Of a DNA stretch of 63,328 nucleotides, positions 700-36,653 are shown piece by piece. Source of the DNA: Pseudomonadota bacterium (lineage in GTDB: Bacteria; Pseudomonadota; Gammaproteobacteria; UBA9214); contig JBDLJX010000003.1 of the NCBI GenBank assembly GCA_039714155.1, positions 1-63,328 of the forward strand. The letters run 5' to 3'. The notes under the pieces were generated by a model. The model made no database searches, was not told the DNA's origin, and saw only the letters and a program-made list of their open reading frames with translations. The position numbers and the translations under genes were made by a program. Within the stretch, counting starts at the first letter, position 1; the number at the start of each line of letters is the position of its first letter.

Positions 700-700
700 G

Positions 701-3831: not shown

Positions 3832-3934
3832 GGTTTGTGTTTTCCGGGTTAGGGATAAACAGTGTCAGGGCACAATTTCTGCTTATAGTATAGTGCTGTC
3901 CCTTAACTCCCTCTCTCGGAAGGAGAAGGAGTTA

Positions 3935-3979
3935 ACCCGCATTTCTCACCGCGGGGCGAGATGATCGCGCAGAGATTTG
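3935..3979 (+). repeat. Truncated left end of ERIC-like element (subfamily B)
   Basis: TA-acccgcatttctcaccgcggggcgagatgatcgcgcagagatttg nearly identical to the start of the 36470 copy. Confidence 0.8.
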
Positions 3980-5557: not shown

Positions 5558-5565
5558 TTAACTAT

Positions 5566-6414: not shown

Positions 6415-6435
6415 TGCAACATTACACACCAACCA

Positions 6436-6759
6436 ATGACTAACGGACGGCTGATTACCGGCTGCTTGATCCTGTTACTGGCCACTGGCCCGGTAATGGC
6501 CGCGCCGTTTCATCAGTCTCCGTTTTATTATCACCCGCTGCTGGTCGCGCAACGCGATCATGCCGGCAATGGCGGCATCAGCCTGGACGAGGCGGTCGCG
6601 CAGGCACGGCAACGGAACAAGGGCAAGGTACTGTCTGCGGAGACCATCCGTGTCGATGGTCGCAAGGTCCACCGCATCAAGATCCTGACGAAGAACGGGC
6701 GGGTCAAGCGCATCCAGATCGATGCCCGTAGCGGGAAGAAAATGAAACGCGGACATTGA
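6436..6759 (+). CDS. PepSY domain protein, exported
   Basis: Signal peptide; ISLDEAVAQARQRNKGKVLSAE......VHRIKILTKNGRVKRIQIDARSG. Confidence 0.85.
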   Translation: MTNGRLITGCLILLLATGPVMAAPFHQSPFYYHPLLVAQRDHAGNGGISLDEAVAQARQRNKGKVLSAETIRVDGRKVHRIKILTKNGRVKRIQIDARSGKKMKRGH

Positions 6760-6762
6760 GCC

Positions 6763-7446: not shown

Positions 7447-8792
7447 TGCGTTCGCTGCACAGCCGACTGCTGCTGGCTGCATCCCTGGTTCTTGCCGGCT
7501 TCCTTGGTGCCACCGGCCTGGCGCTCGACAAGGCCTTTCGCGTCAGTGCCGAGGCCGCCATGCAGGACCGCCTGCAGTCTCATATCTACGCCCTGCTGGC
7601 CGCCGCGGATGAAGATGACAACGGCCGCATGACCCCGCCACAGGAGCTGCCGGAACCACGCTTCTCGAAACCGGATTCAGGTCTGTATGCGGTCATCACC
7701 AGCGGCAACGGTAAACCGCTGTGGCACTCCACCTCCCTGACCGGGCGCAACATCAACGTGACGGAACAACAAATGCCCGGCAAGCGCCACTTTAGCCGGC
7801 TAGCCCGCTCGGGCATGCAACTGTATGCCCTCGCGCTTGGCGTTGCCTGGGAAGACGATGCCGGCACGGAGGCGTTGTACACATTCACCGTGGCGGAAGA
7901 TACCACGGTGTTCCAGACGGAGATCGACAGTTTCCGTTCTACCTTGTGGCGCTGGCTCGGCGGCATGGCACTGGTGCTGCTGCTGGCGCAGGGTGTCATC
8001 CTGCGCTGGGGCCTGCGGCCACTGCGGACGGTTAGCAATGACCTGCAGCAGATCGAAAAAGGCCGCGCAGACCGTCTGGACGGACACTACCCCAGGGAAC
8101 TCACCGGCTTGACCTCCAGCCTGAATTCCCTGATCGAGCACAGCAAGGCGGTACAGATCCGTTACCGCAACAGCCTCGATGACCTCGCCCACAGCCTGAA
8201 AACACCACTGGCCATTTTGCAGTCCAGCCCCCCGGACAGCAGTCGCAACCCTGATACCAGCCACGCCCTGGTCAGGGAACAGGTGGAACGCATGGATGAA
8301 ATCATCAGCCATCAATTACAACGCGCCGCCGTCTCCGGCCGGACCACACTGGCCAAACCGGTATCGGTTGGCAAGGTCGTGGAGCGGCTGGTGCGCTCCC
8401 TCGACAAGGTGTACCGGGAAAAACAGCTGACGGTTAACCTGGAACTGGACCCGTCAGCCAGCTTCACAGGGGACGAGGCCGACCTGACGGAGGTCCTCGG
8501 CAACCTGCTGGAGAACGCCTACAAGTACTGCCACCGTGCGGTCCGGGTGTGCGTGCGGACGGGCCCACACACCGACGGTGTCGAGATCAGCATCGAAGAC
8601 GACGGCCCCGGCATTGCAGCAGATCAGGTCGACACCGTCCTGCAACGCGGCAAACGCATGGACGAGTCGATTCCCGGTCAGGGCCTCGGCCTGAGCATGG
8701 CCAGCGAAATTATTACCGTGTATGGCGGGCAACTGGCATTTGCTGTCAGCCCCCTGGGCGGCACCCTGCTGCGGGTCAGTTTCCGCGATTGA
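7446..8792 (+). CDS. phoQ: Sensor histidine kinase, PhoQ-like
   Basis: Two TM segments, HAMP, H-box DLAHSLKTPL, N-box GNLLENAYKY, G-boxes DDGPGI and GQGLGL. Confidence 0.85.
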   Translation: MRSLHSRLLLAASLVLAGFLGATGLALDKAFRVSAEAAMQDRLQSHIYALLAAADEDDNGRMTPPQELPEPRFSKPDSGLYAVITSGNGKPLWHSTSLTGRNINVTEQQMPGKRHFSRLARSGMQLYALALGVAWEDDAGTEALYTFTVAEDTTVFQTEIDSFRSTLWRWLGGMALVLLLAQGVILRWGLRPLRTVSNDLQQIEKGRADRLDGHYPRELTGLTSSLNSLIEHSKAVQIRYRNSLDDLAHSLKTPLAILQSSPPDSSRNPDTSHALVREQVERMDEIISHQLQRAAVSGRTTLAKPVSVGKVVERLVRSLDKVYREKQLTVNLELDPSASFTGDEADLTEVLGNLLENAYKYCHRAVRVCVRTGPHTDGVEISIEDDGPGIAADQVDTVLQRGKRMDESIPGQGLGLSMASEIITVYGGQLAFAVSPLGGTLLRVSFRD

Positions 8793-8828
8793 CCCGGTAG
8801 TCAGTTCTTCACAGGTCGGGTTAGCCAT

Positions 8829-8923
8829 GTGGGAGCGTCGTCGCCTACAGGGATGTAGGTGAGGGGCGTGAGCAGGACGCGGAAGCTTCCCCGGCGCGAA
8901 TCGCGGCGAGACGCCGCTCCCAC
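8829..8923. repeat. Composite family A REP pair with internal insert
   Basis: gtgggagcg...ccccggcgcga followed by tcgcggcgagacgccgctcccac; same layout, without the insert, at 44936-44983. Confidence 0.7.
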
Positions 8924-8957
8924 AGTAAGAATATTCTTTCAATAATGAGGGCAACCT

Positions 8958-9356
8958 TCACCGCATTGGTGACAGGCTGACGTTCACTGGTATCCGCTCA
9001 CCGGGGTCGTAAGACAACCGGGTGGTCTCCGTCTCACCGCCATAGCGATAGGTCACCCGGTAACCGCTAATGTGTTCGCGAGCGCGTTGTTCAGTGACGT
9101 TTCTGCAGCGGTGCTGTTGCTGCCACTGACGAACCTGATGCCGGATATCCTCACCGATGGTCGCCGCGATGTCGTTAAATTCCCGCGCCGTGGCATCCGG
9201 TTCAGTACATACCCGGCGTGTGATCGGCTCATAGCGTGTTTCCATGACAGGCTCTACGTTCAACACCGGCGCAAAGGCCTGGTATTCCACGGCGTGCGTG
9301 AAGCCGCTCATGAGCCAGACAAGCAACAGGACCTGTATCTTCATTCCGGTTCTCAT
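8958..9356 (-). CDS. Exported YcfJ-like protein lacking the glycine zipper
   Basis: Signal peptide; A.VLNVEPV.ET...C and GYRVTYRYGGE...DPGERIPV.V match the 5887 protein; zipper segment replaced. Confidence 0.75.
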   Translation of the reverse strand: MRTGMKIQVLLLVWLMSGFTHAVEYQAFAPVLNVEPVMETRYEPITRRVCTEPDATAREFNDIAATIGEDIRHQVRQWQQQHRCRNVTEQRAREHISGYRVTYRYGGETETTRLSYDPGERIPVNVSLSPMR

Positions 9357-9401
9357 TGGTCTGCTCCTGTTCAGTTTGCCGGATGCCTTGATGGTTTTGC
9401 A

Positions 9402-9471
9402 GTAGGAGCGACTTCAGTCGCGATGGGTTGTTAATAATTCAGCCAGTTATCGCGGCTGAAGCCGCTCCTAC
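9402..9471. repeat. REPIN-like inverted pair of family A REPs
   Basis: gtaggagcgacttcagtcgcga ... tcgcggctgaagccgctcctac. Confidence 0.85.
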
Positions 9472-9538
9472 GGTTGCTGTTTGTAATTATGTGAGACAGC
9501 AGTAACACTGCATACATAATCAGTTTCGTGTGCAACAT

Positions 9539-10333
9539 TTATCCAAACCCCATCTTGTCGAGCAACTGCTCTCCACTGCTGCGCTCGGCCTCGTCGGTAT
9601 ACTGCATCACTACATCAAAGCCACCTTCCGGTAGCCGAAACCAGTCCAGGCGCAAGTTACCAAACCCGGGCTGCAGCCGGTCAACAAAGGCGGCCGCACG
9701 GTAGGGACGGGAAAAATGGATGATGAACAGGCGATTCTGCCCCGCATAGCGTTGCCGTGCCGTGCCGCTGCGTGCCTTGCCGCTGCCGTTCAGGACATAC
9801 TCAAGATGCCGCAGGATATAGGCGCTGTACCAGACCGCACCGGCCGGCAAGCGCCCCCCGGACACAGGTATCCGTGAAGGTCCGTAATTATAGGCCGCCA
9901 GGGTGCGGTACCAGTTGCCATCATAGCGTTGCTGCAGTTCCTTCAGGTAGCGTGCACCGGCATCCACATTGGTACAGGGATCCAGCACCTCGGACAGGCG
10001 CTCCAGCCCCAGGTGTTTCGCCGTAGCGGGCCAGAGAATCTGCATCAGGCCGTAGGCATTGGCCTTCGAACGGGCCCGCGGTTTGAAATCACTCTCGCCC
10101 CTGGCAACGGCCAGTAACAGGGTTTCCGGCAGGTCATGGGCAGAGGCCGCGCGACTGAAGCAATGTGCATAGGGAAAGTCCAGTGCCGGCGAGGTTTGCA
10201 GGGCGTTCGTCGCATAGGTCTGCCAGCGCGCTTCCGTTGCCAGGCGATCGATCGAGGTATCCGTTTTCGCAGCTGCTGTGGTGGTCCACGACACACTTAT
10301 ACAAAGTATCAGTATCGATGGATGCCGCAGCAT
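9539..10333 (-). CDS. SLT-family lytic transglycosylase with C-terminal SPOR-like domain
   Basis: AVARGESDF (catalytic Glu), AYGLMQI, NVDAGARYL, LAAYNYG; signal peptide; short C-terminal alpha/beta domain. Confidence 0.9.
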   Translation of the reverse strand: MLRHPSILILCISVSWTTTAAAKTDTSIDRLATEARWQTYATNALQTSPALDFPYAHCFSRAASAHDLPETLLLAVARGESDFKPRARSKANAYGLMQILWPATAKHLGLERLSEVLDPCTNVDAGARYLKELQQRYDGNWYRTLAAYNYGPSRIPVSGGRLPAGAVWYSAYILRHLEYVLNGSGKARSGTARQRYAGQNRLFIIHFSRPYRAAAFVDRLQPGFGNLRLDWFRLPEGGFDVVMQYTDEAERSSGEQLLDKMGFG

Positions 10334-10335
10334 GG

Positions 10336-10875
10336 CTATTCCAGTTCGAGTCCGGTTATGGTCTGAATATGCTCGACCAGCACCTGCCGTTCCCCGTCAT
10401 CCCGGTAACTGAAAACCACCTGATAGTTTCCCGGGCTTTCATTCACCACTTCCATGGGCACATCAGTCGCCAGGGCCAGGCGTCGTGCAAAGCCGTTTGC
10501 CGCCCACTCGCTCCGGAAGGGACTCCAGACCCGATAGCGGGACCCCGCCATGTCGCCACTGCGATCATCGGTTTCCTGGGCAGCCACGGACTGATTCCAT
10601 GACTGCGGGTCCAGTGCCAGTTCGTTACCGGTAGCATCAGGCTTGCTCTCTTCAGCCGGGCTGGCAGTGTCTGTAACCGGAAGTACCGGGCTGTCGACAG
10701 CATTGTCGACCGGTACATCCTCTGCCGGTGCCGGTTCGGTAACCCTGCGGTCTGTATCCGCCTCACTGCTGACGACTTCCTTCACCAGCGTTGGCGAGTT
10801 GCCGGTACTCAGGGCCAGCAGGAATACCCCCGACATCAACAAGGCACCGACCAGAAATCCTATAGCCCGCGTCAT
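10336..10875 (-). CDS. Membrane-anchored protein with low-complexity linker and SPOR-like C-terminus
   Basis: ATGA overlap with the upstream stop; N-terminal TM; acidic Pro/Ala linker; RVWSPFRSEWAANGFARRL...YQVVF resembles the C-terminus of the neighbouring SLT. Confidence 0.7.
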   Translation of the reverse strand: MTRAIGFLVGALLMSGVFLLALSTGNSPTLVKEVVSSEADTDRRVTEPAPAEDVPVDNAVDSPVLPVTDTASPAEESKPDATGNELALDPQSWNQSVAAQETDDRSGDMAGSRYRVWSPFRSEWAANGFARRLALATDVPMEVVNESPGNYQVVFSYRDDGERQVLVEHIQTITGLELE

Positions 10876-12299
10876 GGCAACCGCCTCGCCGTCCACACGG
10901 CATGGTCGCGGTTCGCCGCGATCAGGCGGTCAAGCCTGTCCAGCCACGGGTCCCGGTCTTCAGCATCACCCTGCATACCCGCAGCATTGCTGCAGGCATC
11001 GGGCAGGTCCTGCAACAGCTGGCGAAATTGCCGTCCCGGTTCGGCGCCACTGACGGCAATGGCATAGACCGTTGGCCAGTCGGACGACTGAAAACGTGCC
11101 TCGGGAAACCGGTACGCATGCCTGCCCGGGTGTGCCTGTGCGGGGGCCGTCGTGTCACAGGTAGCGGACAGTTGACTGATACCGTCTTTGGTACCATGCG
11201 CAATCACAAACACCGCGTCGGCCTGTTCGACGTCCACTTCCAGCACCGGGCAGCCGTGCTGCCCGTCGCTGCAACTGTCACGCCAGGCACCACTGTTTGC
11301 GTGCCGCACCAGTTCCATGCGGGCAATGCTCGGCTTCATCCTGCTGCTATCCCGAGCCACGCTGCGTTTGCCGGGATGGCTGCCGGCGGGCGGGAGTCGA
11401 ATCCAGGTCGCCGTGTCCATGCCGGCAAGGTGGTCGCCGGAGCCCCCGGGATGCAGTATGACCCAGACCTGGTAAAGACCCGGCTGAATCATGTGGCTCT
11501 CGCCGCGCAGCACGAAGTTCGCCTGCCGGCCTGCATCGGTCACCTGTACCTCCCGGTAACGCGACAGGTTATTGCCGATCAACTGCAACAGGGTACGCAG
11601 CTGCGGCTGGTCAGAGGCAAGCTTGTCTACCTTGATTTTCAGGTCTTCCACATCCTGTTGCCGCAACAGGCAACTCAGGTTGTTGGCCAGGTAGGTTGCG
11701 GCCAGGTCCGGCTGGCCGGCACTGAAGGGCAAAACCCTGAGACCCCGCAGTGACTCATCGGTACGCCGCACTTGCAGGGCGCGCAACTCGTTACCGGTCA
11801 GACTCCCCGACCAGTGCTGGCTGAATCCGCTGACCCATTCACCTGCCTGCACATCCAGGGCACGCACCGATACGCGGAACTGTGCCGTTGCCGTGCGTGC
11901 AATCTCGATGCCGATAAAATAACTGGCATCACGACTTCTGCCGCACTGTACCTGGTCCAGCCGGCGGTGATGTCGGGCTTGCTGTTGCTGTGGTTGCCAG
12001 GGCACGTGTACGCCGGGCGTTTGCAGCAGGCTGTCCATGAGCCGGTCACGCATGCTGCGCGTCAGGCCGTCGATGTCCGGCTGTATATCGTCGCCATCGA
12101 GGTGCACGATAATCACCGGCTCGCCCTTGAAGCGCGGGTGCTGGCCAAGTTGTTGCGACACGTAGGGTGCAAGTTCGGTATCCACCCAGTCTTGCAGTGT
12201 TGACGGTGTGCCGTGCACGGGACGCAGCGGATTCTGACTGCAGCCGGCGGTCAGCAGCAGGAGCAGTAATGCAATCAGGGCATGGCGCCTGGTTATCAC
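10872..12299 (-). CDS. Uncharacterised 475 aa lipoprotein
   Basis: Lipobox LTAGC; N-terminal region loosely recalls FlgO/CsgG/TolB-N-like folds (unverified). Confidence 0.75.
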   Translation of the reverse strand: MITRRHALIALLLLLLTAGCSQNPLRPVHGTPSTLQDWVDTELAPYVSQQLGQHPRFKGEPVIIVHLDGDDIQPDIDGLTRSMRDRLMDSLLQTPGVHVPWQPQQQQARHHRRLDQVQCGRSRDASYFIGIEIARTATAQFRVSVRALDVQAGEWVSGFSQHWSGSLTGNELRALQVRRTDESLRGLRVLPFSAGQPDLAATYLANNLSCLLRQQDVEDLKIKVDKLASDQPQLRTLLQLIGNNLSRYREVQVTDAGRQANFVLRGESHMIQPGLYQVWVILHPGGSGDHLAGMDTATWIRLPPAGSHPGKRSVARDSSRMKPSIARMELVRHANSGAWRDSCSDGQHGCPVLEVDVEQADAVFVIAHGTKDGISQLSATCDTTAPAQAHPGRHAYRFPEARFQSSDWPTVYAIAVSGAEPGRQFRQLLQDLPDACSNAAGMQGDAEDRDPWLDRLDRLIAANRDHAVWTARRLP

Positions 12300-12302
12300 T
12301 TC

Positions 12303-13283
12303 TCACTCCTCCAGTACCACCTGGCCGTCGCTACGGATCACCAGCGCACCACCCTGCTGTCCCCGGGTGAGTGAGGCAATGGCCGCTTGTGTAGCTGCTG
12401 GCAATTGCACCCCCCAGACAACGGTGGACTGCCCGGGGCCGTCTGCCGTGTTTTTCAGGCTGTGAATGTAGTGTGCCGGCACGGTCAGCGCCGACATCTC
12501 GTGAAACCATCCTGGCAATGACTCTGGCGCAACAGCCGGCCTGCCCGCATCCATCGACAGGCGCCAGGCCTGTTGATTGGCCATGCCGTACAGGCTGACG
12601 CTACCCGCCGCGACCAGTCGATCGAGTGCGGCCGCGGAGGCAAAGCGCAAGCTAAACCCCTGCCTGGCGGGTACCGGTTTTACTGCGGGCGCTGCTGGTG
12701 CTTGTTTCTCGATCACAGACTTGTCCGGTTTTTGCTGTGACCGGCGCTTGATTGCCTCGATTTCCTTGCGGCTGTGATCCAGCTGCACCTGTGTGTCCAG
12801 CAGTCGCCCACGGAGTTCGTCCAGGTCCTGTTCTTGCTGCATCGAGGCCTGTTCGATATCGGCCAGCAGCTTGCGTCCCTGCTCAAGCTGCCGGTCCAGG
12901 GTGTCCAGCTGCGCTTCGAGGCGGTTGCGTTGCTCGCGTGCCTGTTGTGTTTGCCCGGCAAGCTGTTCAAGCTGTCGTTGCGCAACAGTCAGAACATGCT
13001 GCGTCCGCTCCTTTGCTGATTTCAGTGCCTGCAGTTCGACCTGCAGTTCCCGTACCTGTTGCTGCTGCGCCCTGATCTCCTGCCGTATCCTTGCCGCCTG
13101 CGGAGGCTGGGCGGGTTTGTCCGGCTCCTGTACCGGAATCCCCTGCACCAGTGCGAATATGGCCATCAGGCACAGACCGATGATTGACATGAAGCGCATG
13201 ACATCCGTTTGCAGGGCATCGGTATCTCTCCCTGCCGCACCGGCGGCAGCTGGATACTTTGCATGTCGGCGCCGCTGCATCAT
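12303..13283 (-). CDS. MotB/ExbD-like single-TM protein with ~120 aa coiled coil
   Basis: QTDVMRFMSIIGLCLMAIFALV: Asp at the start of a TM helix; heptad-rich segment; no OmpA-like domain seen. Confidence 0.7.
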   Translation of the reverse strand: MMQRRRHAKYPAAAGAAGRDTDALQTDVMRFMSIIGLCLMAIFALVQGIPVQEPDKPAQPPQAARIRQEIRAQQQQVRELQVELQALKSAKERTQHVLTVAQRQLEQLAGQTQQAREQRNRLEAQLDTLDRQLEQGRKLLADIEQASMQQEQDLDELRGRLLDTQVQLDHSRKEIEAIKRRSQQKPDKSVIEKQAPAAPAVKPVPARQGFSLRFASAAALDRLVAAGSVSLYGMANQQAWRLSMDAGRPAVAPESLPGWFHEMSALTVPAHYIHSLKNTADGPGQSTVVWGVQLPAATQAAIASLTRGQQGGALVIRSDGQVVLEE

Positions 13284-13945
13284 TGTTCTTCCTGTAATGT
13301 GTACGCCGTGCTTCCGCGTGTGCCAGCACCGTCGATAGACTCGCGTATATCACTGAGCAATGTTTCAACCCGGTTGGCGTGGTGTTGCTCCTGTGCCTCG
13401 TAATAGCGACTCAGCCGGGTTCCCAGCAGAGAACTCTTGATGACACGCATCAGGTAACCGCCAATGCCGCCGACGATGGTGGTTGTCAGCGCCGTCAGGA
13501 TGCCGCCCTCCACCAGCCGCTGCAGCACGGCATAGGCACCGGCTTGTGTCGCCACCCCCGGATCACCGAGGGCATACAACAGCGCACTGCGCATGCCGAT
13601 CGCGGTCCAGATCACGCCGATACCGAAGAACAGGCTGGTCCAGACATCGTTCAGATGCTCGAGCTGGCTGATCTCATCCTGTGGACGGTTGTCATCGAGC
13701 CGCTGTTGCAACGTCCGCAGGCTATGGATATACAGGCCCAGGGTGATGCCGAACGGCAGTATCGATAACCCCAGGTTGCGCCGGCTCCACTCAAACAGCA
13801 CCTGGATCCGGGGCGCCTCGAGAATGGATATCGAAATGACCTCGAGCACGCTCAGCAGGTACACCGCCACCAGGCCGGTGATGAAGCTGAGCGTCATGCC
13901 CAGCAACATACCCTTGAAAAAGCCGCGATCCCTCAGCTGTTTCAT
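13280..13945 (-). CDS. MotA/TolQ/ExbB-like proton-channel protein
   Basis: FFGIGVIWTAIGM (cf. lGllGTviGm) and GILTALTTTIVG (cf. GiatAL.tT..G) TM motifs. Confidence 0.75.
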   Translation of the reverse strand: MKQLRDRGFFKGMLLGMTLSFITGLVAVYLLSVLEVISISILEAPRIQVLFEWSRRNLGLSILPFGITLGLYIHSLRTLQQRLDDNRPQDEISQLEHLNDVWTSLFFGIGVIWTAIGMRSALLYALGDPGVATQAGAYAVLQRLVEGGILTALTTTIVGGIGGYLMRVIKSSLLGTRLSRYYEAQEQHHANRVETLLSDIRESIDGAGTRGSTAYTLQEEQ

Positions 13946-13951
13946 CGCCCA

Positions 13952-14509
13952 TTACTCAATCGGCCCACAGGCCTCGCAGGTGGCCTCCAGCACCAGTTCG
14001 GTCTCCTGATACAGGTTGCTGGCGCGGGTGTAATTAAGCCGGTCCGCACTGATCTTGAGCAGGCCCTGCTCCTTGTCGGCCAGTTCCCGGTTCATGTCAC
14101 GCATGACATCGGACTGGTGCGGGCAGGTTTGTGCACAGACACTGTAATCGCTGACCAGGGACACGTACTTGATACCAAAATAACGGTTATAGAGTTCCCG
14201 CGCCTGCCGCTTGCTCAACAGACCTGTGTCATTCGACCACAACAGGAAGTCGCTGAAGCTGGCCTTGTTCTCCTTTTTCGGGTCGCCTTCCGCGATCGTC
14301 AGCAGGCGCTGGAAGTAGGCATCGAACTCATGTTCGCAACCGGTTTCCAGATCGAAGCGGGCGGCACTGATGGCACGTTCCAGGTTCGGTCCCTCCGGCA
14401 GGCTGCAGGCAGTCGCGTGGGTGGGATTGCTGCTGCAGGCGGCCAGTGACGTGGTGATAGCCGCCACGGTAACGAGTCCGGTCAGTTTGATTTTCATTGC
14501 TGTGTTCAT
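13952..14509 (-). CDS. Uncharacterised helical Cys-containing lipoprotein
   Basis: Lipobox SLAAC; SD GGAG upstream; Cys pairs CAQTC, CEAC. Confidence 0.75.
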   Translation of the reverse strand: MNTAMKIKLTGLVTVAAITTSLAACSSNPTHATACSLPEGPNLERAISAARFDLETGCEHEFDAYFQRLLTIAEGDPKKENKASFSDFLLWSNDTGLLSKRQARELYNRYFGIKYVSLVSDYSVCAQTCPHQSDVMRDMNRELADKEQGLLKISADRLNYTRASNLYQETELVLEATCEACGPIE

Positions 14510-14533
14510 GCCTTTTCTCCAGTTCAGTTGCTG

Positions 14534-15373
14534 TCACATTTGCAGGGCACTTTCATAGCCGTGGTCGGCCGGCCCGGCGGGCGGGATGGCCATCGGCATG
14601 ACGTCCAGTTCTTCACCGAACAGGATGGCCTTGACGCCGGCCACCACTTCCTGCATCTCCGGGGTAATGGTCCCGAATGACTGGTTAAGCTGTTCCATCA
14701 GGGTTGCGCGGCTGATCTCTTCGCGGGTACGTGCGATCAGACTGGACGTCTCCTGCATATCGAGATAGATATCCGAGGCAATCACGGCCAGTGAGGAATT
14801 GTTCTTGCCACCGGAACGCGACACCAGCTTGTAATACTGGCTAAAGCGGGCACTGAGCCGCATGCCCGAGCGGCCGCGCAGTGATGGCTGACTGGCAGCG
14901 GCCGATTTACCGGACTCTGCCCCTATCAGCAGTTCCTGCAGGGTCCAGGACGTTTTCTTCTGGCCCAGTTCCTTGCGAATGCGCTTCTCGAGACTGGACG
15001 AGGTGGCATTCACCGCGGTTTCCATCTCCGGCAGCTTGTCTGCCATGATATTCAGCATCTCGAGATAACTTTTTCCGAGTTGCCTGGCAATGCGCTCGCA
15101 ACCGGGATCACCTTCGTTGCCTTCGCACTTGCTGCCCAGGTAAAGCTTTTGCTGTTCATCCAGCTGGCTGATAACGCCCTGCAGCCCGGTTTCCATCTCC
15201 GCGGCGACATTGCCGGTATGCTTGATTTCCTCCAGTACGGTGGTCGGAAACAACTTGATAGTCGGTGCAGTCGGACTTGCATAAGCGCCCACCGGCAGCA
15301 GCAGGCAGCCGGTCAGCAGCTGTTTGAAAAAATTCCGTGTGCCTTTCCAGTCACAGATCGTTGCAATCTTCAT
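14534..15373 (-). CDS. Uncharacterised secreted helical/coiled-coil protein (first gene of the operon)
   Basis: AAGGAGG SD before ATG 15373; signal peptide ending AYA; CEGNEGDPGC loop. Confidence 0.75.
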   Translation of the reverse strand: MKIATICDWKGTRNFFKQLLTGCLLLPVGAYASPTAPTIKLFPTTVLEEIKHTGNVAAEMETGLQGVISQLDEQQKLYLGSKCEGNEGDPGCERIARQLGKSYLEMLNIMADKLPEMETAVNATSSSLEKRIRKELGQKKTSWTLQELLIGAESGKSAAASQPSLRGRSGMRLSARFSQYYKLVSRSGGKNNSSLAVIASDIYLDMQETSSLIARTREEISRATLMEQLNQSFGTITPEMQEVVAGVKAILFGEELDVMPMAIPPAGPADHGYESALQM

Positions 15374-15446
15374 TGGGAGCCCCTCCTTGCAGTCATTGAT
15401 ATCATGATTTACCTTGAAGCCTTCGCGGCCTGTGTTTGTGAGGATT

Positions 15447-15480
15447 AATATAGGCAAGTGTTCCTGAACAGAACCTGAAT
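15447..15480 (-). promoter_or_regulatory. PhoP-type direct-repeat box plus -10 for the 15373 operon
   Basis: Minus strand ATTCAG-gttct-GTTCAG, 11 nt, TATATT; same geometry as 5781-5814. Confidence 0.7.
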
Positions 15481-15508
15481 GGCGCTGAAAAAAGGCTGGT
15501 GGTGACAG

Positions 15509-15556
15509 GCGGGAGCGCCGGCCCCGGCGTGAAACACGGCTGGAAGACGCTCCTGC
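15509..15556. repeat. Degenerate family A REP pair
   Basis: gcgggagcgccggccccggcgtga...gacgctcctgc. Confidence 0.6.
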
Positions 15557-15701
15557 AGGTTATCAGCATGTACAGGCTGGATCAGGCCGGCAGGCCGCGT
15601 AATCCGGCAGTAATTCCGGGCCTGAACGAGCGGATGCCTGAATTTTGCTACAATCAGGACAGGAGAATAATGAAAAGCGATGTCGGGCCGATTACATTCC
15701 A

Positions 15702-16595
15702 GTGACTAACAACTCTTCCATATCGGGGATACAAGGACTTCTGGCAATACCCCTGTCGTTGTTGCTGCTCTCGGCCACGGTATTTTCTTCCAGTGTGTTT
15801 GGACATGCCGGTATTCAGGAGGAGATCAAAGAGATCACCCGGTTGATCCGGCAAGACCCGGCGAATGCGCAATTGTATTTGCAGCGCGGCGATCTATACC
15901 GCATTCACCAGGACTGGGATCATGCGCGGGAAGATTTTCACAAGGCACTGCAAGCGGGTACCGATGATGCCAGTGCCGAGACCGGTCTGGGCCGGACTTG
16001 TTTTGACCAGGGCTTGCACCAGCAGGCGCTTGCGCATCTGAACCGTGCGCTGGCCCTGCAACCGGGCAATGTGCGTGCGCTGGTCACCCGGGCAAAGACC
16101 TGGAGGGTGCTGGGCAAACCGCTTGCCACCGCCGCGGATTACACGCGGGCCATCCGGCAATTTCAGTCACCCCGGGAACCACTGCCCGAGTATTATCTGC
16201 AACGTGCCCGTGCATATGCCGCGGCAGGCGATCCACACATCGGCCAGGCCCTGCAGGGCCTGGATGAAGGCATGCAGGTACTGGGCAATATCCAGACCCT
16301 CGCACTTTATGCCGTGGAACTCGAAACACAGCGCGGCAATGTCGAAGCGGCGCTTGAGCGTCTCGATACCATCCTGGCAGGTTCGCCGCGCAGGGAATCC
16401 CTGCTGCTGCAACGCGGCGACATCCTGCTGGCGGCAAATCGCAACGCGGAAGCACAACAGGAGTTTCTCGCGGCACAGGCGGCAATTGCTGCCCTGCCCC
16501 TGCAACGCCGTCACACCCGATCGATGCAGCAACTGGCAGCGGCACTGACTGGCCGATTGCAATCAGCAGCACAGCAGGATGATCATGCACAGTAG
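15702..16595 (+). CDS. Exported tetratricopeptide-repeat protein
   Basis: Repeated TPR helices (AQLYLQRGDLYR..QDW..A..DF..AL); signal-like N-terminus; start uncertain (15645 or GTG 15702). Confidence 0.8.
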   Translation: MTNNSSISGIQGLLAIPLSLLLLSATVFSSSVFGHAGIQEEIKEITRLIRQDPANAQLYLQRGDLYRIHQDWDHAREDFHKALQAGTDDASAETGLGRTCFDQGLHQQALAHLNRALALQPGNVRALVTRAKTWRVLGKPLATAADYTRAIRQFQSPREPLPEYYLQRARAYAAAGDPHIGQALQGLDEGMQVLGNIQTLALYAVELETQRGNVEAALERLDTILAGSPRRESLLLQRGDILLAANRNAEAQQEFLAAQAAIAALPLQRRHTRSMQQLAAALTGRLQSAAQQDDHAQ

Positions 16596-18927
16596 GCCGA
16601 AATACCGGCGATCCGCGCTGCTGCTGGCGCTGCTGCTCTGGCCATTCTGCAGCCTGGCGGCGCCCCAGGTGCTGGTGCAGGCCGGTTCAGCGAACAAGTA
16701 CCTGGCCAACAGCAGTGACCCGGGGATCGGGCTGGACTGGACTGTAAAAAACTACCCCCCTGAGTCAAGCTGGGACGTGGGCAGCTACGGCATCGGTTAT
16801 GAAAACGACTCGGGCGCACAGAACCTGTTTCAAACCACGGTACCGACTAATACCCGCTCCCTGTATACCCGGACAACATTTACAATCACGAACAAGAACA
16901 ATGTCACCAGTATGTTACTCGGCGTGGACTACGACGATGGTTACGTTGCCTGGATCAATGGTACCGAGGTGTTCCGTTCCGCCTCAATGCCCGGCGGCAC
17001 GCCAGTCTGGAACTCAACCCCGGCCTCGCATGAGTCGAGTAACGGCTCGAGCCCCAATTATTCACCGTTGCAGGATATCTCGTCGACCGCCATTCCGAAG
17101 TTGAAGAACGGCACCAACACACTGGCTATTGCTGCCTACAACCGTTCCGGCTCTTCCAGCGACCTGGTACTGGTTCCACAGCTGTCCATCAATGACAACG
17201 TCACGCGCGGCCCGTATTTGCAACAAGGCACACCCACCAGCGTCATCGTTCAGTGGCGGACTGCAACGGCAACTGACAGCCGGGTCCGCTATGGCACCGC
17301 ACCCGGCAATCTCACCAGTGTTGTCGATGTTGCAGGCAGTACCACGGAACATACGGTCACGCTGAGTGGTTTGACGCCGGATACCACTTACTACTATTCC
17401 ATTGGCAGTACCACCGGGGTGTTTGCCGGTGATGATGCCGATCATTTCTTTCTGACATCGCCAACGGCTGGCACGGCCAAGCCCACCCGCATCTGGGTGT
17501 TGGGTGATTCCGGTACGGCGAATGCCAATGCACAGGCCGTTGCCGATGCCTATGCAAACTTTACCGGCAGCACCCACACCGACCTGTGGCTGATGCTGGG
17601 TGATAACGCCTATAACGACGGGACCGATATTGAGTACCAGGCCGCCGTATTTGATATGTACCCGGAGATGCTGCGCAAGTCCGTACTGTGGGCAACACTG
17701 GGGAACCACGATGGCCATACGGCGGATTCTGCGACACAGTCCGGGCCGTATTACGATATCTTTACCCTGCCGAAAAATGGCGAGGCCGGTGGACTGGTCT
17801 CAGGGACAGAAGCCTATTATTCCTTTGATTACGGCAACATCCATTTCATTTGCCTGGAATCCCACGAAACCGACCGTTCGCCCACCGGGGCAATGCTGAC
17901 CTGGCTGGGCCTGGATCTGGCGGCCACAACGCAGGAGTGGATCATCGCCTTCTGGCATCACCCGCCTTATACCAAGGGCAGTCACGATTCCGATACCGAA
18001 ACCCGGTTGGTGGAAATGCGGCAAAATGCCCTGCCGATTCTGGAAGCAGCCGGTGTGGACCTGGTGCTGTCCGGGCACAGTCATTCCTATGAACGTTCTT
18101 TTTTGCTTGACGGGCATTACGGCCTCTCGGGCACCCTCGCGAATTCCATGAAGATTGATACCGGTGATGGCAAAACCAATGGCGATGGTGCCTACAAGGA
18201 TGTGTATGACGAGGCCAATCCGTTTCAGGGTGCTGTCTATGTCACGGCGGGCAGCTCCGGCAAGACCAGCAACGGTTCGCTGGACCACCCGGTGATGGTG
18301 CATGCCTCCCTCAAACAGCTTGGTTCACTGGTGCTGGATGTGAACGGCAACCGCCTGGATGCCACGTTTGTGAGAGAGAATGGCAGCGTCGATGATTACT
18401 TCACCATTCTGAAGGCACCGGACAATTGCCCGCTGGTGGCGAACCCGTCACAACTGGACACCGATGGCGACGGCCTCGGTGATGCTTGCGACGAGGATGA
18501 TGACGACGACGGACTGAGCGACAGCTTTGAACAGGGCATTGGTACCAATCCGCTATTGAGTGATACCGACGGAGACGGGCTGAGTGACTTTTTTGAAGTG
18601 AATTTTGACAATGACCCGGCCTACACACCCGGCACGGATCTCAATCCCCTGCTGGATGACACGGATGGTGATGGCCATGCCGATGCGGCCGACCCGATTC
18701 CACTGACGTTTAATTTTGACGATGGTGATGTGGCGCCCAGGGACAACCCGGATGGCAACATCAATGCCGGCGATTATGTCGTCATGATGAGGATCGTGCT
18801 CGGACTGGTGACAGCGGGTGATACCGAACTGGCACATGGCGATCTCTATCCACCCGGCGCACCTGACGGCGAAATCGGCCTCCCGGACATGTTGCAACTG
18901 TTGCAACTTCCCGGCTTGCAGGAATAA
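16579..18927 (+). CDS. Secreted purple-acid-phosphatase-like metallophosphoesterase with FN3-like, TSP3-like Ca-binding repeats and dockerin-like tail
   Basis: RGPYLQ PAP N-domain; GDSG, GDNAY, GNHD, WHHPPY, SGHSHSYER; DNCP.VANPSQLDTDGDG.GDACD repeats; duplicated D...DG.I...D loop at the C-terminus. Confidence 0.88.
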   Translation: MIMHSRPKYRRSALLLALLLWPFCSLAAPQVLVQAGSANKYLANSSDPGIGLDWTVKNYPPESSWDVGSYGIGYENDSGAQNLFQTTVPTNTRSLYTRTTFTITNKNNVTSMLLGVDYDDGYVAWINGTEVFRSASMPGGTPVWNSTPASHESSNGSSPNYSPLQDISSTAIPKLKNGTNTLAIAAYNRSGSSSDLVLVPQLSINDNVTRGPYLQQGTPTSVIVQWRTATATDSRVRYGTAPGNLTSVVDVAGSTTEHTVTLSGLTPDTTYYYSIGSTTGVFAGDDADHFFLTSPTAGTAKPTRIWVLGDSGTANANAQAVADAYANFTGSTHTDLWLMLGDNAYNDGTDIEYQAAVFDMYPEMLRKSVLWATLGNHDGHTADSATQSGPYYDIFTLPKNGEAGGLVSGTEAYYSFDYGNIHFICLESHETDRSPTGAMLTWLGLDLAATTQEWIIAFWHHPPYTKGSHDSDTETRLVEMRQNALPILEAAGVDLVLSGHSHSYERSFLLDGHYGLSGTLANSMKIDTGDGKTNGDGAYKDVYDEANPFQGAVYVTAGSSGKTSNGSLDHPVMVHASLKQLGSLVLDVNGNRLDATFVRENGSVDDYFTILKAPDNCPLVANPSQLDTDGDGLGDACDEDDDDDGLSDSFEQGIGTNPLLSDTDGDGLSDFFEVNFDNDPAYTPGTDLNPLLDDTDGDGHADAADPIPLTFNFDDGDVAPRDNPDGNINAGDYVVMMRIVLGLVTAGDTELAHGDLYPPGAPDGEIGLPDMLQLLQLPGLQE

Positions 18928-19068
18928 AGATATCGGGGACCGGCCCCGATCCCTTAATATCCTTCGGGTTATGCCGACAGTGGTTATGTAATATTCTGTT
19001 AACTGGCAAATCAGGTGTAAAAACCGGGTATTAGGGGGCTGTACCATTAATATTTTTGGAGGTTATTC

Positions 19069-19368
19069 ATGAAGTTATCATTTATCGGCTTGATTCAGGG
19101 AATTCTCCTGGGATGGGCGTTTATCCCGGCCGGCGTACTGGCCTGTCATCCGGGGCAGGATGGTTGCCTGGGTTGTAATGACGAGGAGTTGCCAGTATGT
19201 CTGCAGGCATTTGTGATGGAAGTATGCGAGAACTCCGGCAATCCGGCCACCTGCGACAGCCGTCGCGTCTACGATGATGCGGAACGCCATGTTCTGACCA
19301 ACACCGGCAGACATATGTCCCGCATACGCGCCATGGTCCGGAGCTCCCGCAAGTACCAGCTTCACTGA
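19069..19368 (+). CDS. Small exported six-Cys protein
   Basis: SD GGAGG, signal peptide ending VLA, mature part CHPGQDGCLGC..C..C..C. Confidence 0.65.
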   Translation: MKLSFIGLIQGILLGWAFIPAGVLACHPGQDGCLGCNDEELPVCLQAFVMEVCENSGNPATCDSRRVYDDAERHVLTNTGRHMSRIRAMVRSSRKYQLH

Positions 19369-19415
19369 GGCGGGGTATCCACAACAGTTCCTGCAAGAAC
19401 TATCCATACCAATCA

Positions 19416-19468
19416 GCCCACATTTCTCACCACGATGACGAGCCCTCGCCCCGCGGTGAGAAGTACGG
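19416..19468 (-). repeat. Internally deleted ERIC-like element (short subfamily B)
   Basis: Reverse complement matches 22742-22796. Confidence 0.8.
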
Positions 19469-19471
19469 CCT

Positions 19472-19547
19472 GCAGGAGCGAATTCATTCGCGATGGTGTT
19501 GCATGAATATACCTGCAATGTTCTTTCGCGGCTGAAGCCGCTCCTGC
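19472..19547. repeat. REPIN-like inverted pair of family A REPs
   Basis: gcaggagcgaattcattcgcga ... tcgcggctgaagccgctcctgc. Confidence 0.85.
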
Positions 19548-19571
19548 GGGATAATATCCATCAACAGGTAA

Positions 19572-21755
19572 TCATGATGACCGCGGTGGCAAGCCGGTGT
19601 GTTGAGTGAGGATTTTCTTTCCCCGGGTACGATGCTGGTGGGCGGCGGCGGAGTTCTTGCGTCGGGGTGACTTGTAGTCTTTCTTCTCTTGTGGTTGTTC
19701 TTTCGGAATGAGCTGGTGTTCACCGTTGCCAATGAGGTCGGTACGCCCCATCCCCTTGAGTCTTTCGCGAAGCAACGGCCAGTTGTCCGGGTCGTGGTAG
19801 CGCAGGAAGGCCTTGTGCAAATTGCGCTGCTCCGGGTCCTTGACGGATTCCACAGTTTCGCTCTTGTAGCCAACTTTCTTCAGCGGGTTCTTGCCGGTAT
19901 GGAACATGGCGGTCGCCGTGGCCATCGGTGACGGGTAAAACGCCTGCACCTGGTCGGCACGGAAGCCGTTGTGTTTGAGCCATAAAGCGAGGTTCAGCAT
20001 ATCCTCGTTAGTGGTGCCGGGGTGCGCAGCGATGAAGTATGGAATCAGGTACTGTTCCTTGCCGGCTTCTTTCGAGAACTTCTCGAACAGCTTCTTGAAC
20101 CTGTCATAGCTGCCGATGCCCGGTTTCATCATTTTCGACAACGGCCCGTCCTCGGTGTGTTCCGGGGCGATCTTGAGGTAGCCGCCGACGTGGTGGGTGA
20201 CCAGCTCTTGCACATATTCCGGGTCTTCAACGGCGAGATCATAGCGAAGTCCCGAGGCAATCAGCACTTTCCTGACGCCCTTGAGCTTGCGCGCCTCGCG
20301 GTAGAGTTGCGTCAGTGCCGAGTGGTTGGTGTTGAGGTTCGGGCAGATACCGGGATACACACAGCTCGGCTTGCGACAGGCGGCCTCGATCTCGCGGCTC
20401 TTGCAGGCGATGCGGTACATGTTCGCGGTCGGCCCGCCAAGGTCGGAGATGACACCGGTGAAACCCGGCACCATGTCGCGGATCTGCTCGATCTCGTTGA
20501 GAATCGATTCCCTTGAGCGGTTCTGGATGATGCGGCCCTCGTGCTCGGTGATGGAGCAGAAGGTGCAGCCACCGAAGCAGCCGCGCATGATGTTTACCGA
20601 GAAACGGATCATTTCCCAGGCAGGAATTCGTGCGCCCTGGTATGACGGGTGCGGTACACGCGCATACGGCATGCCAAAGATGTAATCCATTTCTGCCGTG
20701 GTCAGCGGCACCGGTGGCGGGTTCAGCCAGATATCCCGGCCGTCATGGCTCTGTACCAGCGCCCGCGCATTGCCGGGGTTGGTCTCGAGATGCAGCACAC
20801 GGCTGGCATGCGCGTACAGCGCCCTGTCGTTGCGCACCTTTTCAAATGATGGCAGACGGATGACGGTCTTGCTGCGGTCAAGTTTCCCTGGCTGTGTGAA
20901 CTCAACGATCTGTGCCCCGCTCTCGTCGATGCCATATTGCTGTGTATTGCGGCGCTGCTTTTCGCAGTCGGTGATTTCCTGCGTATTGATATAGGGATTG
21001 ACAATCCGGTCGATGCGCCCGGGCCGGTCGATGCGGGTGGAGTCGATTTCCTGGTAGCCGTCCGGGGTGTCGTGGCGGATAAAGGCGGTACCGCGCACAT
21101 CGGTAATTTCCTCGATGACCTCGCCCAGCGACAGACGCTGCGCAATCTCGGCGATGGCACGCTCGGCATTGCCGTAGAGCAGGATGTCGGCGTTGGCATC
21201 CAGCAGGATAGAGCGGCGCACCGTGTCCTGCCAGTAGTCGTAGTGTGCGATGCGCCGCAGGGAGGCCTCGATACCGCCAAGCACAATCGGCACACCCTGG
21301 TATGCCTCGCGACAGCGCTGGCTGTAGACCAGCGAGCAGCGGTCCGGGCGTGCCCCGCCCTGCCCGTCCGGCGTGTAGGCATCGTCCGAGCGTGGTTTGC
21401 GATCAGCGGTGTAGCGATTGATCATGGAATCCATGTTGCCGGCGGTCACACCGAAGAACAGGTTCGGTTTACCGAGCGCCATGAACGGGTCTTTCGAGTG
21501 CCAGTCGGGTTGCGCGATGATGCCGACGCGGAAGCCCTGTGCCTCTAACAGCCGGCCGATGATGGCCATACCAAAGGACGGTTGGTCGACGTAGGCATCG
21601 CCGGTGACGATGATGATGTCGCAGGAATCCCAGCCGAGCATATCCATCTCCGCCCGCGACACGGGCAGGAATTTACTGCTGCCGTAACACTCGGCCCAGT
21701 ACTTCGGATAGTCGTACAGGCTGGTGTCGGCCTTGGGGACAGGGATGGCGGACAT
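19572..21755 (-). CDS. ygiQ: YgiQ family radical SAM protein
   Basis: [28 protein letters not shown] (CxxxCxxC), [19 protein letters not shown]. Confidence 0.95.
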
Positions 21756-21945: not shown

Positions 21946-22389
21946 TCAGGAACCCGGGGCCTCATCTGGCGGTGACTCTGACGCCTTGATGCAAGCGTCG
22001 ATGTATTCATCCAGTTTGTTTTTGGCAGTGTGGTCGAGACTCTGGAACTCGACACCGACATGGAAGCGGTCCTGGGCAAGGCGTTCGTAGTGCACCAGCT
22101 GCACCTTGTCCTTGATGATGGTGGCGTGCTGGCTGCCGGCCTTTATCTTGAAACAGATCTCGAGGATGACGTCGTGGACAGTACCCGGGGTGCGCTGCTC
22201 TTCCGGTATCAGTGCATTGATCAGTTGCAAACCGCACTGGAACTTCAGCCCACCGAGTGACAGGTTGAGAACGCGTGCCGAACCAGGGCTCTCGCCCGGC
22301 AGGCCGGCTTCGCAGGATATGTCGGTTTCAATACGCCGGTGGCGACGGTTGATCCTGAGGTGTTGTTCCGTTGTATTGTTCAAGTGCAA
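21946..22389 (-). CDS. PilZ domain protein
   Basis: RRHRR (RxxxR) and NLSLGG (N/DxSxxG) motifs; GVEF near the end. Confidence 0.8.
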   Translation of the reverse strand: MHLNNTTEQHLRINRRHRRIETDISCEAGLPGESPGSARVLNLSLGGLKFQCGLQLINALIPEEQRTPGTVHDVILEICFKIKAGSQHATIIKDKVQLVHYERLAQDRFHVGVEFQSLDHTAKNKLDEYIDACIKASESPPDEAPGS

Positions 22390-22606
22390 TCTGGCGGGTT
22401 GTTATCCCTGCGGTTGACCTGTCCCTGCCTCGTGGCACAGGCCCCGGTTCGTCTTCGAATCAGGGCCGAGAATGTATGCTTCGGCCAGGCAAAGGTCAAG
22501 TGCGAGGCGTTTTTCCCGCCTGACGCAGATAAATTTTCCGATCAAAATTAAACAGCTGTCAAATTAGTCAAAAATACACCAGACAGACTGGTCTATCTTT
22601 AATGCC

Positions 22607-22838
22607 TCATTCTTCAGCCTGCTGTTCTTCCAGTTTGATCTGCTGGTAGATCTCTTTCCTGTGCACAGCTATTTCACGGGGTGCGTTGATGCCGATTCTG
22701 GCCTGGCACACCAAGCACGGTGATGCTGACATCATCATCTAGCCCGCACTTCTCACCGCGGGGCGAGGGCTCGTCTTCGTGGTGAGAAATGCGGGCTAGC
22801 ATCAGGGTCTCCCCTGTCCTTCGAGTAAGTATCAACAC
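22607..22838 (-). pseudogene. csrA: csrA/rsmA pseudogene interrupted by a 55 bp palindromic element and frameshifted
   Basis: GGAGG SD, GTG start; MLILTRRTGETLML [element] [11 protein letters not shown] / frameshift / [31 protein letters not shown]; not in the ORF track. Confidence 0.9.
22742..22796. mobile_element. Short ERIC-like/MITE element with TA target-site duplication
   Basis: TA-gcccgcacttctcacc...ggtgagaaatgcgggc-TA; removing element plus one TA restores the csrA frame. Confidence 0.85.
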
Positions 22839-22912
22839 GGGCGGGGCCTCCTTATCGCTTCTTTCGCTCCTGCAGTAAGATTTATTGCGATGATTGGATA
22901 ATTATCTCTGAT

Positions 22913-23635
22913 TCAGGCAGTTAAAGGAGTCTTCAGAATATCGGGGGGCAGCTCGTAACCGGCCTGCTGCATGGCATCGAGAATCATGCCAACTGTCTGG
23001 TCAACCGTGAACCGGTCAGTATTGATGGCCAGATCGAAATTGCTGCAGTCGTTGGCATCCACGCCATAGAGTGTCTTGAGGTAGTCGGCGCGTTCACTGT
23101 CGACCTGTTGGACACGCCGCTCGGCGGCATCCGGATCGAGTCCTTCACGTTCCCTGATACGCGCGGCACATTTTGACAACGAGCCGATGATCCGTACCCG
23201 GAAACAGCGCTTCGGCCCCAGGATCAGGTGCGCACCGCGACCGACGATGACACCACCCTTGGCGGAAATATTGAGTATCACCTTGACCAGGTGATGCAGG
23301 TAGCGTTCCTGCGAATAGCTCTTGTCACGAAACAGGTCCTGCCACCAGTTGCTGTCGATGTGCTTGATCCGTTCATCCAGCACCTTGACCAGTTCAACAT
23401 CGACATTGGCACGCCTGGCGACTTCCTGCAGGATAATACGGTCGCAACAACGCACACCGAGCCGGTCGGCCAGGGCCTGCGCCGTTTCCTTGCCAAGTGC
23501 GCCACAGCCACGGGATACGGTAACAACATAGGTGGCACGGCGGGCTGCGGCTGCCCGCTCCTCGGTTGCCTTGCGCTCAGCCGCAATTTCCGAGCCAACC
23601 AGCGCCTCAATCAGTCGTTCTGCACTGCATTTCAT
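22913..23635 (-). CDS. Cytidylate kinase-like family protein
   Basis: VTVSRGCGALGK..A..LA.RLG; GGVIVGRGA..IL; FDLAINT. Confidence 0.85.
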   Translation of the reverse strand: MKCSAERLIEALVGSEIAAERKATEERAAAARRATYVVTVSRGCGALGKETAQALADRLGVRCCDRIILQEVARRANVDVELVKVLDERIKHIDSNWWQDLFRDKSYSQERYLHHLVKVILNISAKGGVIVGRGAHLILGPKRCFRVRIIGSLSKCAARIREREGLDPDAAERRVQQVDSERADYLKTLYGVDANDCSNFDLAINTDRFTVDQTVGMILDAMQQAGYELPPDILKTPLTA

Positions 23636-36397: not shown

Positions 36398-36469
36398 GGG
36401 GTTGCGCTGATTGGTGGCAAGAACCTGCCCGGTTTCCAGGCAAGACATTTACAATACGAAATTGCCCTA

Positions 36470-36630
36470 GCCCGCACTTCTCACCGCGGGGCGAGATGAT
36501 CGCGCAGAGATTTGGATTCACAGCGCATTTTCTGAAGGAGCGGAATACGGACTGTATTTCCGACTGAAGAAAATCCGCTGTGGATTCAAAGATCAAGTGA
36601 GGGCTCGTCATCGTGGTGAGAAATGCGGGC
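36470..36630 (+). mobile_element. Full-length 161 bp ERIC-like palindromic element (subfamily B)
   Basis: Terminal IRs gcccgcacttctcacc / ggtgagaaatgcgggc, nested internal hairpin, flanked by TA and TG. Confidence 0.8.
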
Positions 36631-36653
36631 TGAGTCCGATTCCGGGAGCGGGA

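Follow-up and report, generated by a model that had tools for sequence, protein, structure and literature searches.

A csrA pseudogene interrupted by a miniature palindromic element with IS1380-type ends in a marine gammaproteobacterium

CsrA is a small protein that folds into a domain-swapped β-sandwich. The IS1380 family of insertion sequences is best known from ISEcp1 and the mobilization of resistance genes, and its description in ISfinder gives ends that start with CC and direct repeats of 4–5 bp. In the literature we found nothing on miniature transposable elements with inverted repeats (MITEs) derived from IS1380-family elements, nor a citable statement of the target duplication in this family. 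Here we describe a csrA remnant in the window, a whole metagenomic contig of 63,328 nt from an uncultured marine gammaproteobacterium. The best homologues of its PhoH protein share 85% identity with it, some of them labelled as Gammaproteobacteria metagenome-assembled genomes. The remnant is split by a palindromic element of 53 bp whose ends are those of IS1380-family insertion sequences. We consider it very probable that this csrA copy was inactivated by two independent lesions, namely the insertion of the 53-bp IS1380-type MITE and an 8-bp deletion. The locus comprises the following features.

22607..22838, minus strand: csrA pseudogene that starts with GTG (ATG in relatives), has 57 nt inserted behind codon 13 and 8 nt deleted, and ends with TGA at 22609..22607
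22800..22838, minus strand: csrA codons 1–13 (MLILTRRTGETLM) with the Shine-Dalgarno sequence AAGGAG upstream; no corroborating public run
22796..22799, no strand: CTAG flank on the 5′ side of csrA, second copy of the putative 4-bp target duplication
22743..22795, no strand: 53-bp MITE core, CCCGCA(C/T)TTCTCACC ... GGTGAGAA(A/G)TGCGGG; this short form equals the 159-bp long form minus an internal ~106 nt
22739..22742, no strand: CTAG flank on the 3′ side of csrA, one copy of the putative 4-bp target duplication; covered by a contig of run X1
22706..22707, minus strand: junction of the 8-nt deletion, where the relative's CGTGGTAA is missing, with 1-nt microhomology (C) and a shifted frame
22607..22738, minus strand: 43-aa frameshift open reading frame (ORF), the C-terminal half of CsrA; 35 bits against Pfam CsrA over profile positions 29–52

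Translation of the minus strand from 22838 to 22607 gives GTG-LILTRRTGETLM, then 19 extra residues (LARISHHEDEPSPRGEKCG), then 12 residues up to a frame break, past which the remnant goes on in the +1 frame for 32 residues. With the insert skipped, the read-through scores 71 bits against Pfam CsrA (PF02599), far above the cut-off of 27, while the separate fragments reach 25.3 and 35.2 bits. When used to search proteins, the read-through detected an intact orthologue, P0001, a 60-aa CsrA with 88% identity that is encoded on two metagenome contigs, L003 and L004. This orthologue matches solved CsrA/RsmE structures (1y00, 1vpz and 2jpp among them) at E = 1e-25. When aligned at the DNA level with the orthologue in L003/L004, the remnant shows exactly two length differences, +57 nt and −8 nt. 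The additional 57 nt start directly behind the ATG of Met13, in frame and stop-free, and the missing 8 nt fall between GGTGTG and CCAGG, in the VRGNQ loop. The initial annotation had described a csrA pseudogene adjoining a PilZ gene and split by an in-frame palindromic element, with a stop-free addition of 57 nt and a separate frameshift caused by the loss of 8 nt. The read-through score and the orthologue alignment bear out this description, and its expectation that relatives carry an uninterrupted csrA at the same locus holds for both L003 and L004.

The insertion point lies inside what we take to be strand β2 of CsrA. Since the insertion splits this strand, it should inactivate CsrA by itself. 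In the course of events that we envisage, a 53-bp non-autonomous MITE bounded by CTAG on both sides would have been moved in trans by an IS1380-family transposase, presumably encoded elsewhere in the genome, and would have inserted into codon 14; an 8-bp deletion in the β3–β4 loop shifts the frame. We infer both the order of these lesions and the loss of csrA function. As a result of the insertion and the frameshift, an uninterrupted csrA ORF of ~60 aa is not present at 22607..22838, and tblastn with the intact orthologue as query found no further csrA in the window. The 43-aa frameshift ORF begins with ATG ATG ATG, which are the old GAT GAT GAT codons read in the new frame right behind the element, and is probably meaningless.

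What kind of element is the insert? Its terminal repeat of 15–19 nt (CTAG followed by CCCGCATTTCTCACC) recurs at the ends of full-length insertion sequences of the IS1380 family, 1.63–1.75 kb long. Three such elements (L016, L020 and L021, 1.63–1.75 kb) have one open frame each, of 456–486 codons. The encoded transposases, ~460–470 aa from the first Met, score 400–402 bits against NF033539 (IS1380 family) and 492 bits against PF13701. Identical ends are found on L016, L020, L021, L126, L128 and L131, each of them with a gene for an IS1380-family transposase. Moreover, the same ends delimit annotated IS1380-family elements in complete plasmids (1655 bp, Stutzerimonas zhaodongensis and P. putida pKF715A), and a related element with the same ends is present on a plasmid of Bradyrhizobium sp. 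CB82; WP_034018616.1 is the transposase of the plasmid-borne element, and the ends of a Rhizobium copy were not located. Those transposases are ~50% identical to the transposase of IS1380A, whose own ends (CGCGGAAATCTCACA) resemble the ends of the csrA element and are flanked by TCGA and TCAA (TCGA-CGCGG...CCGCG-TCAA). The arrangement of the csrA element, CTAG-CCCGC...GCGGG-CTAG, fits the family description of ends starting with CC and repeats of 4–5 bp. Judged by the shared ends, the csrA insert is in all likelihood a MITE derived from an IS1380-family element, rather than an ERIC-like or IS630/Tc1-type one. We also considered repetitive extragenic palindromic (REP) sequences and bacterial interspersed mosaic elements (BIMEs), mobilized by REP-associated tyrosine transposases (RAYTs), and rejected them, because the ends belong to a DDE insertion sequence of the IS1380 family.

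The same end is very common. Scanning metagenomes with the 16-mer GCCCGCAYTTCTCACC returned at least 120 loci. Among the matches listed, nearly all are preceded by (C/T)TA, and the sequence inside differs completely; about 50 complete end pairs span from 36 bp to 1.75 kb, and the 36 small pairs whose body measures at least 60 nt make up 22 clusters unrelated to one another. These matches largely establish that a single 15–19-nt IS1380-type end drives a very large, heterogeneous MITE population in marine-sediment Gammaproteobacteria and beyond.

The csrA insert itself is an imperfect palindrome with 22-nt arms (CTAG flanks counted) that are 91% complementary and lie 17 nt apart. The fold is a 19-bp stem of −43.1 kcal/mol (z = −8.5). 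The terminal 18-mer of the insert is found 8 times in the window, where 0.13 occurrences would be expected, and no Rfam 15 entry matches anywhere in the window at the gathering score. Four copies of the element are present in the window, three of them outside csrA.

36467..36633, no strand: long-form copy, core 36471–36629 (159 bp), flanks CTAG/CTGA, between CofD-like and acyltransferase genes
19413..19473, no strand: second short-form copy, core 19417–19469 (53 bp), with degenerate ends and flanks TCAG/CTGC, intergenic
3933..3979, no strand: truncated copy in which the left end is followed by 19 nt from the start of the long-form body, intergenic

The long-form copy is absent from relatives in runs X3, X5 and X6, whose contigs join 36467 to 36633. 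Thus, there is filled/empty polymorphism both at csrA and at 36468–36632, with further copies at unrelated loci, which upholds the original view of the palindromic element as mobile. At the 19414 copy, the relatives' contigs break at 19412 and 19472 and have unmatched sequence between. The same short form, with one base different in the peptide-encoding region, occurs in another metagenome at an unrelated locus (L125), where it is flanked by TTAG/CTGG and lies inside a called 70-aa ORF.

Several observations touch these copies. Besides the short form, L125 (2779–2967 and 10122–10174 for the two) has a csrA of 62 aa, intact and located near pgsA-uvrC and a GacA-like response regulator. At positions 60–100 of L020, two elements stand head to tail with a single shared TTAG (..GTGAGAAATGCGGG TTAG CCCGCATTTC..), one of them having gone into the flank of the other. 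At 19470–19495, the 19414 copy is directly adjoined by a REP-like motif, TGCAGGAGCGAATTCATTCGCGA, with the palindrome GCGAAT..ATTCGC. The long-form element is immediately upstream of the 453-aa acyltransferase ORF, and the listed GTG start of this ORF at 36597 is inside the element (36597–36632); the true start is therefore probably downstream.

The sequences that flank the element bear on the target duplication. At csrA the context is ATG CTAG (53 bp) CTAG ATGAT, and all plasmid copies have CTAG on both sides. Out of 48 flank pairs, 16 are CTAG/CTAG and 2 are equal without being CTAG; CTAG stands on just one side in 16 more and on neither side in the other 14. The equal non-CTAG pairs seen are TTAG/TTAG, GTAG/GTAG and TTAA/TTAA. 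One clean empty site was found, in plasmid pZDHY95-VIM-2, which reads GAG-CTAG-AGCC where the Stutzerimonas plasmid reads GAG-CTAG-(IS)-CTAG-AGCC; for the Bradyrhizobium and P. putida full-length copies no empty counterparts were found. As CTAG is palindromic and the ends are C...G, this pair fits a 4-bp duplication of CTAG and a 2-bp duplication of TA alike. Nevertheless, the equal non-CTAG flank pairs, as well as the TCGA/TCAA flanks of IS1380A, favor a putative duplication of 4 bp. We rejected a 2-bp duplication of TA for this reason, the two being indistinguishable where the target is CTAG.

Some findings weigh against the proposed insertion of an IS1380-derived MITE into csrA. One comes from the csrA site itself. 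The empty site of the relative (L003 and L004) reads ATG GTTG GTGAT, with neither TA nor CTAG, whereas the window minus the element and one CTAG reads ATG CTAG ATGAT, which changes Val-Gly to Leu-Asp. This amounts to three substitutions in six bases, compared with ~4% divergence in the rest of the gene. Since the relative has GTTG, a simple duplication of its target is not seen. In addition, CTAG occurs only 12 times in the window, compared with 238 expected from base composition (a 20-fold under-representation) and 33.5 from a second-order model, making it by far the rarest palindromic tetranucleotide there. Three of the 12 sites (1255, 7800, 22739, 22796, 23666, 24034, 29052, 36467, 43681, 45046, 49549 and 60360) are flanks of the element. 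Given such depletion, one would not a priori expect a conserved codon pair to have contained CTAG already. Furthermore, the window encodes no IS1380 transposase, so we infer the partner and mobilization in trans. Finally, no indexed public run covers 22795–23000.

The mismatch also undercuts two earlier statements. The empty site had been reconstructed as ATG CTA GAT and taken as direct evidence of TA duplication, but the relative reads ATG GTT GGT GAT, its orthologous GTTG has no TA, and the flanks of the insert are CTAG, of which TA is only the core. A target duplication of GATG and other alignments of the csrA junctions were tried as well, but +57 nt together with three substitutions is at least as parsimonious as any of them. 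Possible explanations for the mismatch are an unsampled ancestor with CTAG at this site, mutations after insertion, or a piggyBac-like carry-over of the flanks.

The last of these would be an addition to the IS1380-derived MITE explanation rather than a substitute for it. An excised piggyBac element retains 5′ overhangs of 4 nt that stem from the flank of the donor site. If the CTAG flank traveled with the element in a similar way, a donor overhang of 4 nt at a non-CTAG target would produce a heteroduplex, and the tetranucleotide could be rewritten to CTAG. IS1380 transposases are prokaryotic, distantly related relatives of piggyBac (PMC10140906, PMC10813416). Carry-over would explain why a conserved codon pair that is GTTG in the relative reads CTAG on both sides of the element in a CTAG-depleted genome, where canonical targets are scarce. 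The long-form site could be read similarly: here the empty sites are TTGCC-CATA-GTCCGA in X3, X5 and X6 and TATATTT in X2, with CATA or TATA in place of the CTAG...CTGA of the window. Unequal flank pairs are also frequent (30 of 48, among them the 16 that have CTAG on just one side, while equal non-CTAG pairs number only 2), and the mismatch per site is 18.8% in flanks compared with 6.8% in the partner arm. However, in the single clean filled/empty comparison available for a full-length element, the empty site reads CTAG. Decay at 6.8% per site, an arm rate itself limited by the search, would alone make ~43% of pairs unequal, so the excess of unequal pairs is modest. The 36468 site is intergenic and hypervariable among the relatives themselves, and an extra G-to-A change beside the csrA site is left unaccounted for by carry-over. 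The case thus comes down to a single conserved site, and we regard carry-over as improbable. Should a mismatch of the csrA type recur elsewhere, it would be of mechanistic interest, linking IS1380 to piggyBac-type chemistry.

The insertion of an IS1380-derived MITE has to be weighed against three further explanations. One is that the locus is an assembly artefact, either two loci joined through a high-copy repeat or a mis-called 8-nt deletion. The window is a single metagenomic contig, and the element is ~350-fold over-represented relative to contig depth in X1, a marine metagenome. In this run, a Logan contig of 1086 nt (depth 41.5) has 0 differences from the window over 22300–22765 (466 nt) and a second contig matches from 22998 onward, yet none matches 22776–22997 at 88% identity or more, and no indexed run contains that stretch. 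On the other hand, the 1086-nt contig runs from PilZ over the 8-nt deletion and the 3′-side junction into the element. The deletion and this junction were therefore assembled independently in X1 and are not assembly errors of the window contig, which settles that part of the concern raised in the initial annotation. Because no indexed run covers 22795–23000, the 5′-side junction between the element and codons 1–13 has the window contig as its single source. We consider this junction real, because a chimera would need to have hit the same gene, the same codon and the correct upstream neighbor. Both halves of csrA and both neighboring genes follow the order of L003/L004; joining by chance would not have put one gene back together at one and the same codon. 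An artefact is accordingly very improbable. A second explanation, put forward in the initial annotation, is that the element is ERIC-like or an IS630/Tc1-type MITE with TA as its target and as the duplicated sequence. Both ends of the insert do have TA, and CTAG is a classical IS630 target. But the transposase is of the IS1380 family, not of the DDE_3/IS630 type, in every full-length element that we found to have these ends, which already refutes the idea as to the partner. The pairs TTAG/TTAG, GTAG/GTAG and TTAA/TTAA fit a 4-bp duplication, and the orthologous empty site is without TA. Overall, we judge this identification highly improbable.

It was also proposed that the element can add peptide cassettes to proteins. 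If so, it would be tolerated in proteins and contribute 19 functional residues, as Rickettsia palindromic elements (RPEs) do in frame. The 57 nt are indeed in frame and stop-free in csrA, and one other predicted protein, P0121, has LARISHHDDEPSPRGEKCGL. In our search of 5.8 billion protein clusters, for which the query was a 40-aa concatenation of peptides from both orientations, P0121 alone emerged as a candidate; this hypothetical protein of 70 aa has no Pfam domain and is encoded on a contig from another metagenome. The host csrA also carries the 8-nt frameshift, and its strand β2 is split by the insertion. Among ~45 complete small copies, the sole long read-throughs are Arg/Ala/Pro-rich spurious frames, and none is credibly in frame inside a gene. 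Element lengths have no clear 3-periodicity, and three of the four copies in the window are intergenic. The insert is in frame and stop-free because 53 + 4 = 57 and the CTA-G frame of its palindromic ends is open; CTAG ends leave about one insertion frame in three open by construction. With a dead host gene, and with no recurrent in-frame insertion in intact genes among the ~45 copies or, beyond P0121, the 5.8 billion clusters, the proposal is not supported, and a functional cassette is extremely improbable.

The surroundings of csrA are conserved in relatives. Gene order in L003 is GSDH / Cytidylate_kin2 / Ysc84 / CsrA / PilZ and in L004 (partial gene) / CsrA / PilZ. The order in the window is that of the relatives, and the flanking DNA is 94% identical.

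21946..22389, minus strand: PilZ-domain gene on the downstream side of csrA; intact, with conserved synteny in relatives
22913..23635, minus strand: cytidylate-kinase-like gene upstream of csrA, syntenic with relatives
22866..22874, minus strand: single copy of TGCAGGAGC, two copies of which flank a ~957-nt segment in L003 (2502–3457)

The ~957-nt segment, which lies between the cytidylate-kinase-like gene and csrA and contains a 188-aa Ysc84-like gene and a solo element end, is missing from the window. A contig in X3 joins 22874 to 22907 with 911 nt in between, so an extra segment is present there too. The repeats suggest that the difference is a deletion between the 9-bp direct repeats TGCAGGAGC or else an insertion in the relative. 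The solo end, CTAGCCCGCATTTCTCCAC, is at L003 3296–3315, just past the Ysc84-like gene and ~180 nt upstream of the intact csrA; the same element family would thus have visited the csrA locus before. When the cytidylate-kinase-like protein was compared with one genome per species, two relatives with 76–77% amino acid identity were found, neither of them syntenic: one contig stops at the gene and the other has a resistance-nodulation-division (RND) transporter downstream. No exact match to the window's 240-aa protein is on record.

Is this csrA the only one in the organism? A 379-nt contig in X1, overlapping window positions 22800–22841, encodes an intact csrA (..VGDDVTVTVL..) with a different upstream sequence. 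Its depth of 42.6 equals that of the window-like strain. This suggests that a second, intact csrA exists, and the X1 copy may be the organism's primary csrA. In Gammaproteobacteria the primary csrA is usually in an alaS-csrA context. The csrA of the window instead sits between cytidylate-kinase-like and PilZ genes and therefore may be a second copy. Thus, it is plausible that the remnant is a paralog.

The window contains other repeats and variable stretches. A motif related to the REP-like one, TGCAGGAGCGAAAG, is present in the csrA leader at 22860–22880, and several X1 contigs match 22864–22899 with depths up to 37. At four further stretches (8828–8930, 19264–19370, ~5287–5691 and 9448–9520), the metagenomes of relatives show depths between 50 and 2400 as well as contig breaks, an indication of additional small repeat families that have nothing to do with the csrA element. 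Over window positions 1–20000, four runs give a noisy signal from many related organisms and other repeat families. In X3 and X6, contigs of relatives pass straight from 9494 to 18944 and so lack 9.4 kb; the joint has a short side of 29 nt. Between 16.0 and 18.7 kb, where a 782-aa metallophosphatase/TSP3-repeat ORF is found, depth is near zero in all four runs. The region ~9494–18944 may be a strain-specific island.

Taken on its own, the locus represents routine genome decay, in which one copy of a global post-transcriptional regulator was probably knocked out by a miniature transposon. For annotation it is relevant that gene callers miss the csrA remnant and may call spurious ORFs across the element. 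The broader point is that IS1380-family transposases appear to support abundant MITE populations that have only their CTAG-flanked ends in common.

How does the locus compare with known systems? The read-through of the window copy is a typical CsrA/RsmA protein of 57–60 aa, as its PF02599 score indicates, but the copy differs from its family in being a pseudogene, disrupted by 57 inserted nt and by the frameshift of 8 nt. With IS1380 family elements (IS1380A, ISEcp1; NF033539, PF13701), the insert shares ends that start with CC and flanks of four nucleotides, the palindrome CTAG here and TCGA/TCAA at IS1380A; unlike them, it is 53 bp long, non-coding and without a transposase. The ends of piggyBac begin CCC...GGG, as do those of the csrA element, and both have a palindromic tetranucleotide target with a TA core, TTAA for piggyBac and CTAG here. 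PMC7351741 reports the TTAA specificity of piggyBac. The csrA element differs in being prokaryotic, and any carry-over of donor flanks in its case is speculative. RPEs are likewise palindromic repeats in frame within coding sequence, but they recur in intact, expressed genes, whereas the csrA host is frameshifted and no recurrence of its insertion was found. There is also a likeness to MITEs such as Correia/NEMIS, RUP, Nezha and ERIC, which are also small and non-coding and have terminal inverted repeats and short flanking repeats. The csrA element shares with MITEs in general its many copies, strong hairpin and presence/absence polymorphism. It differs from them in its probable partner, IS1380 rather than IS630 or IS5, and in that one end of 15–19 nt is common here to at least 22 unrelated internal sequences.

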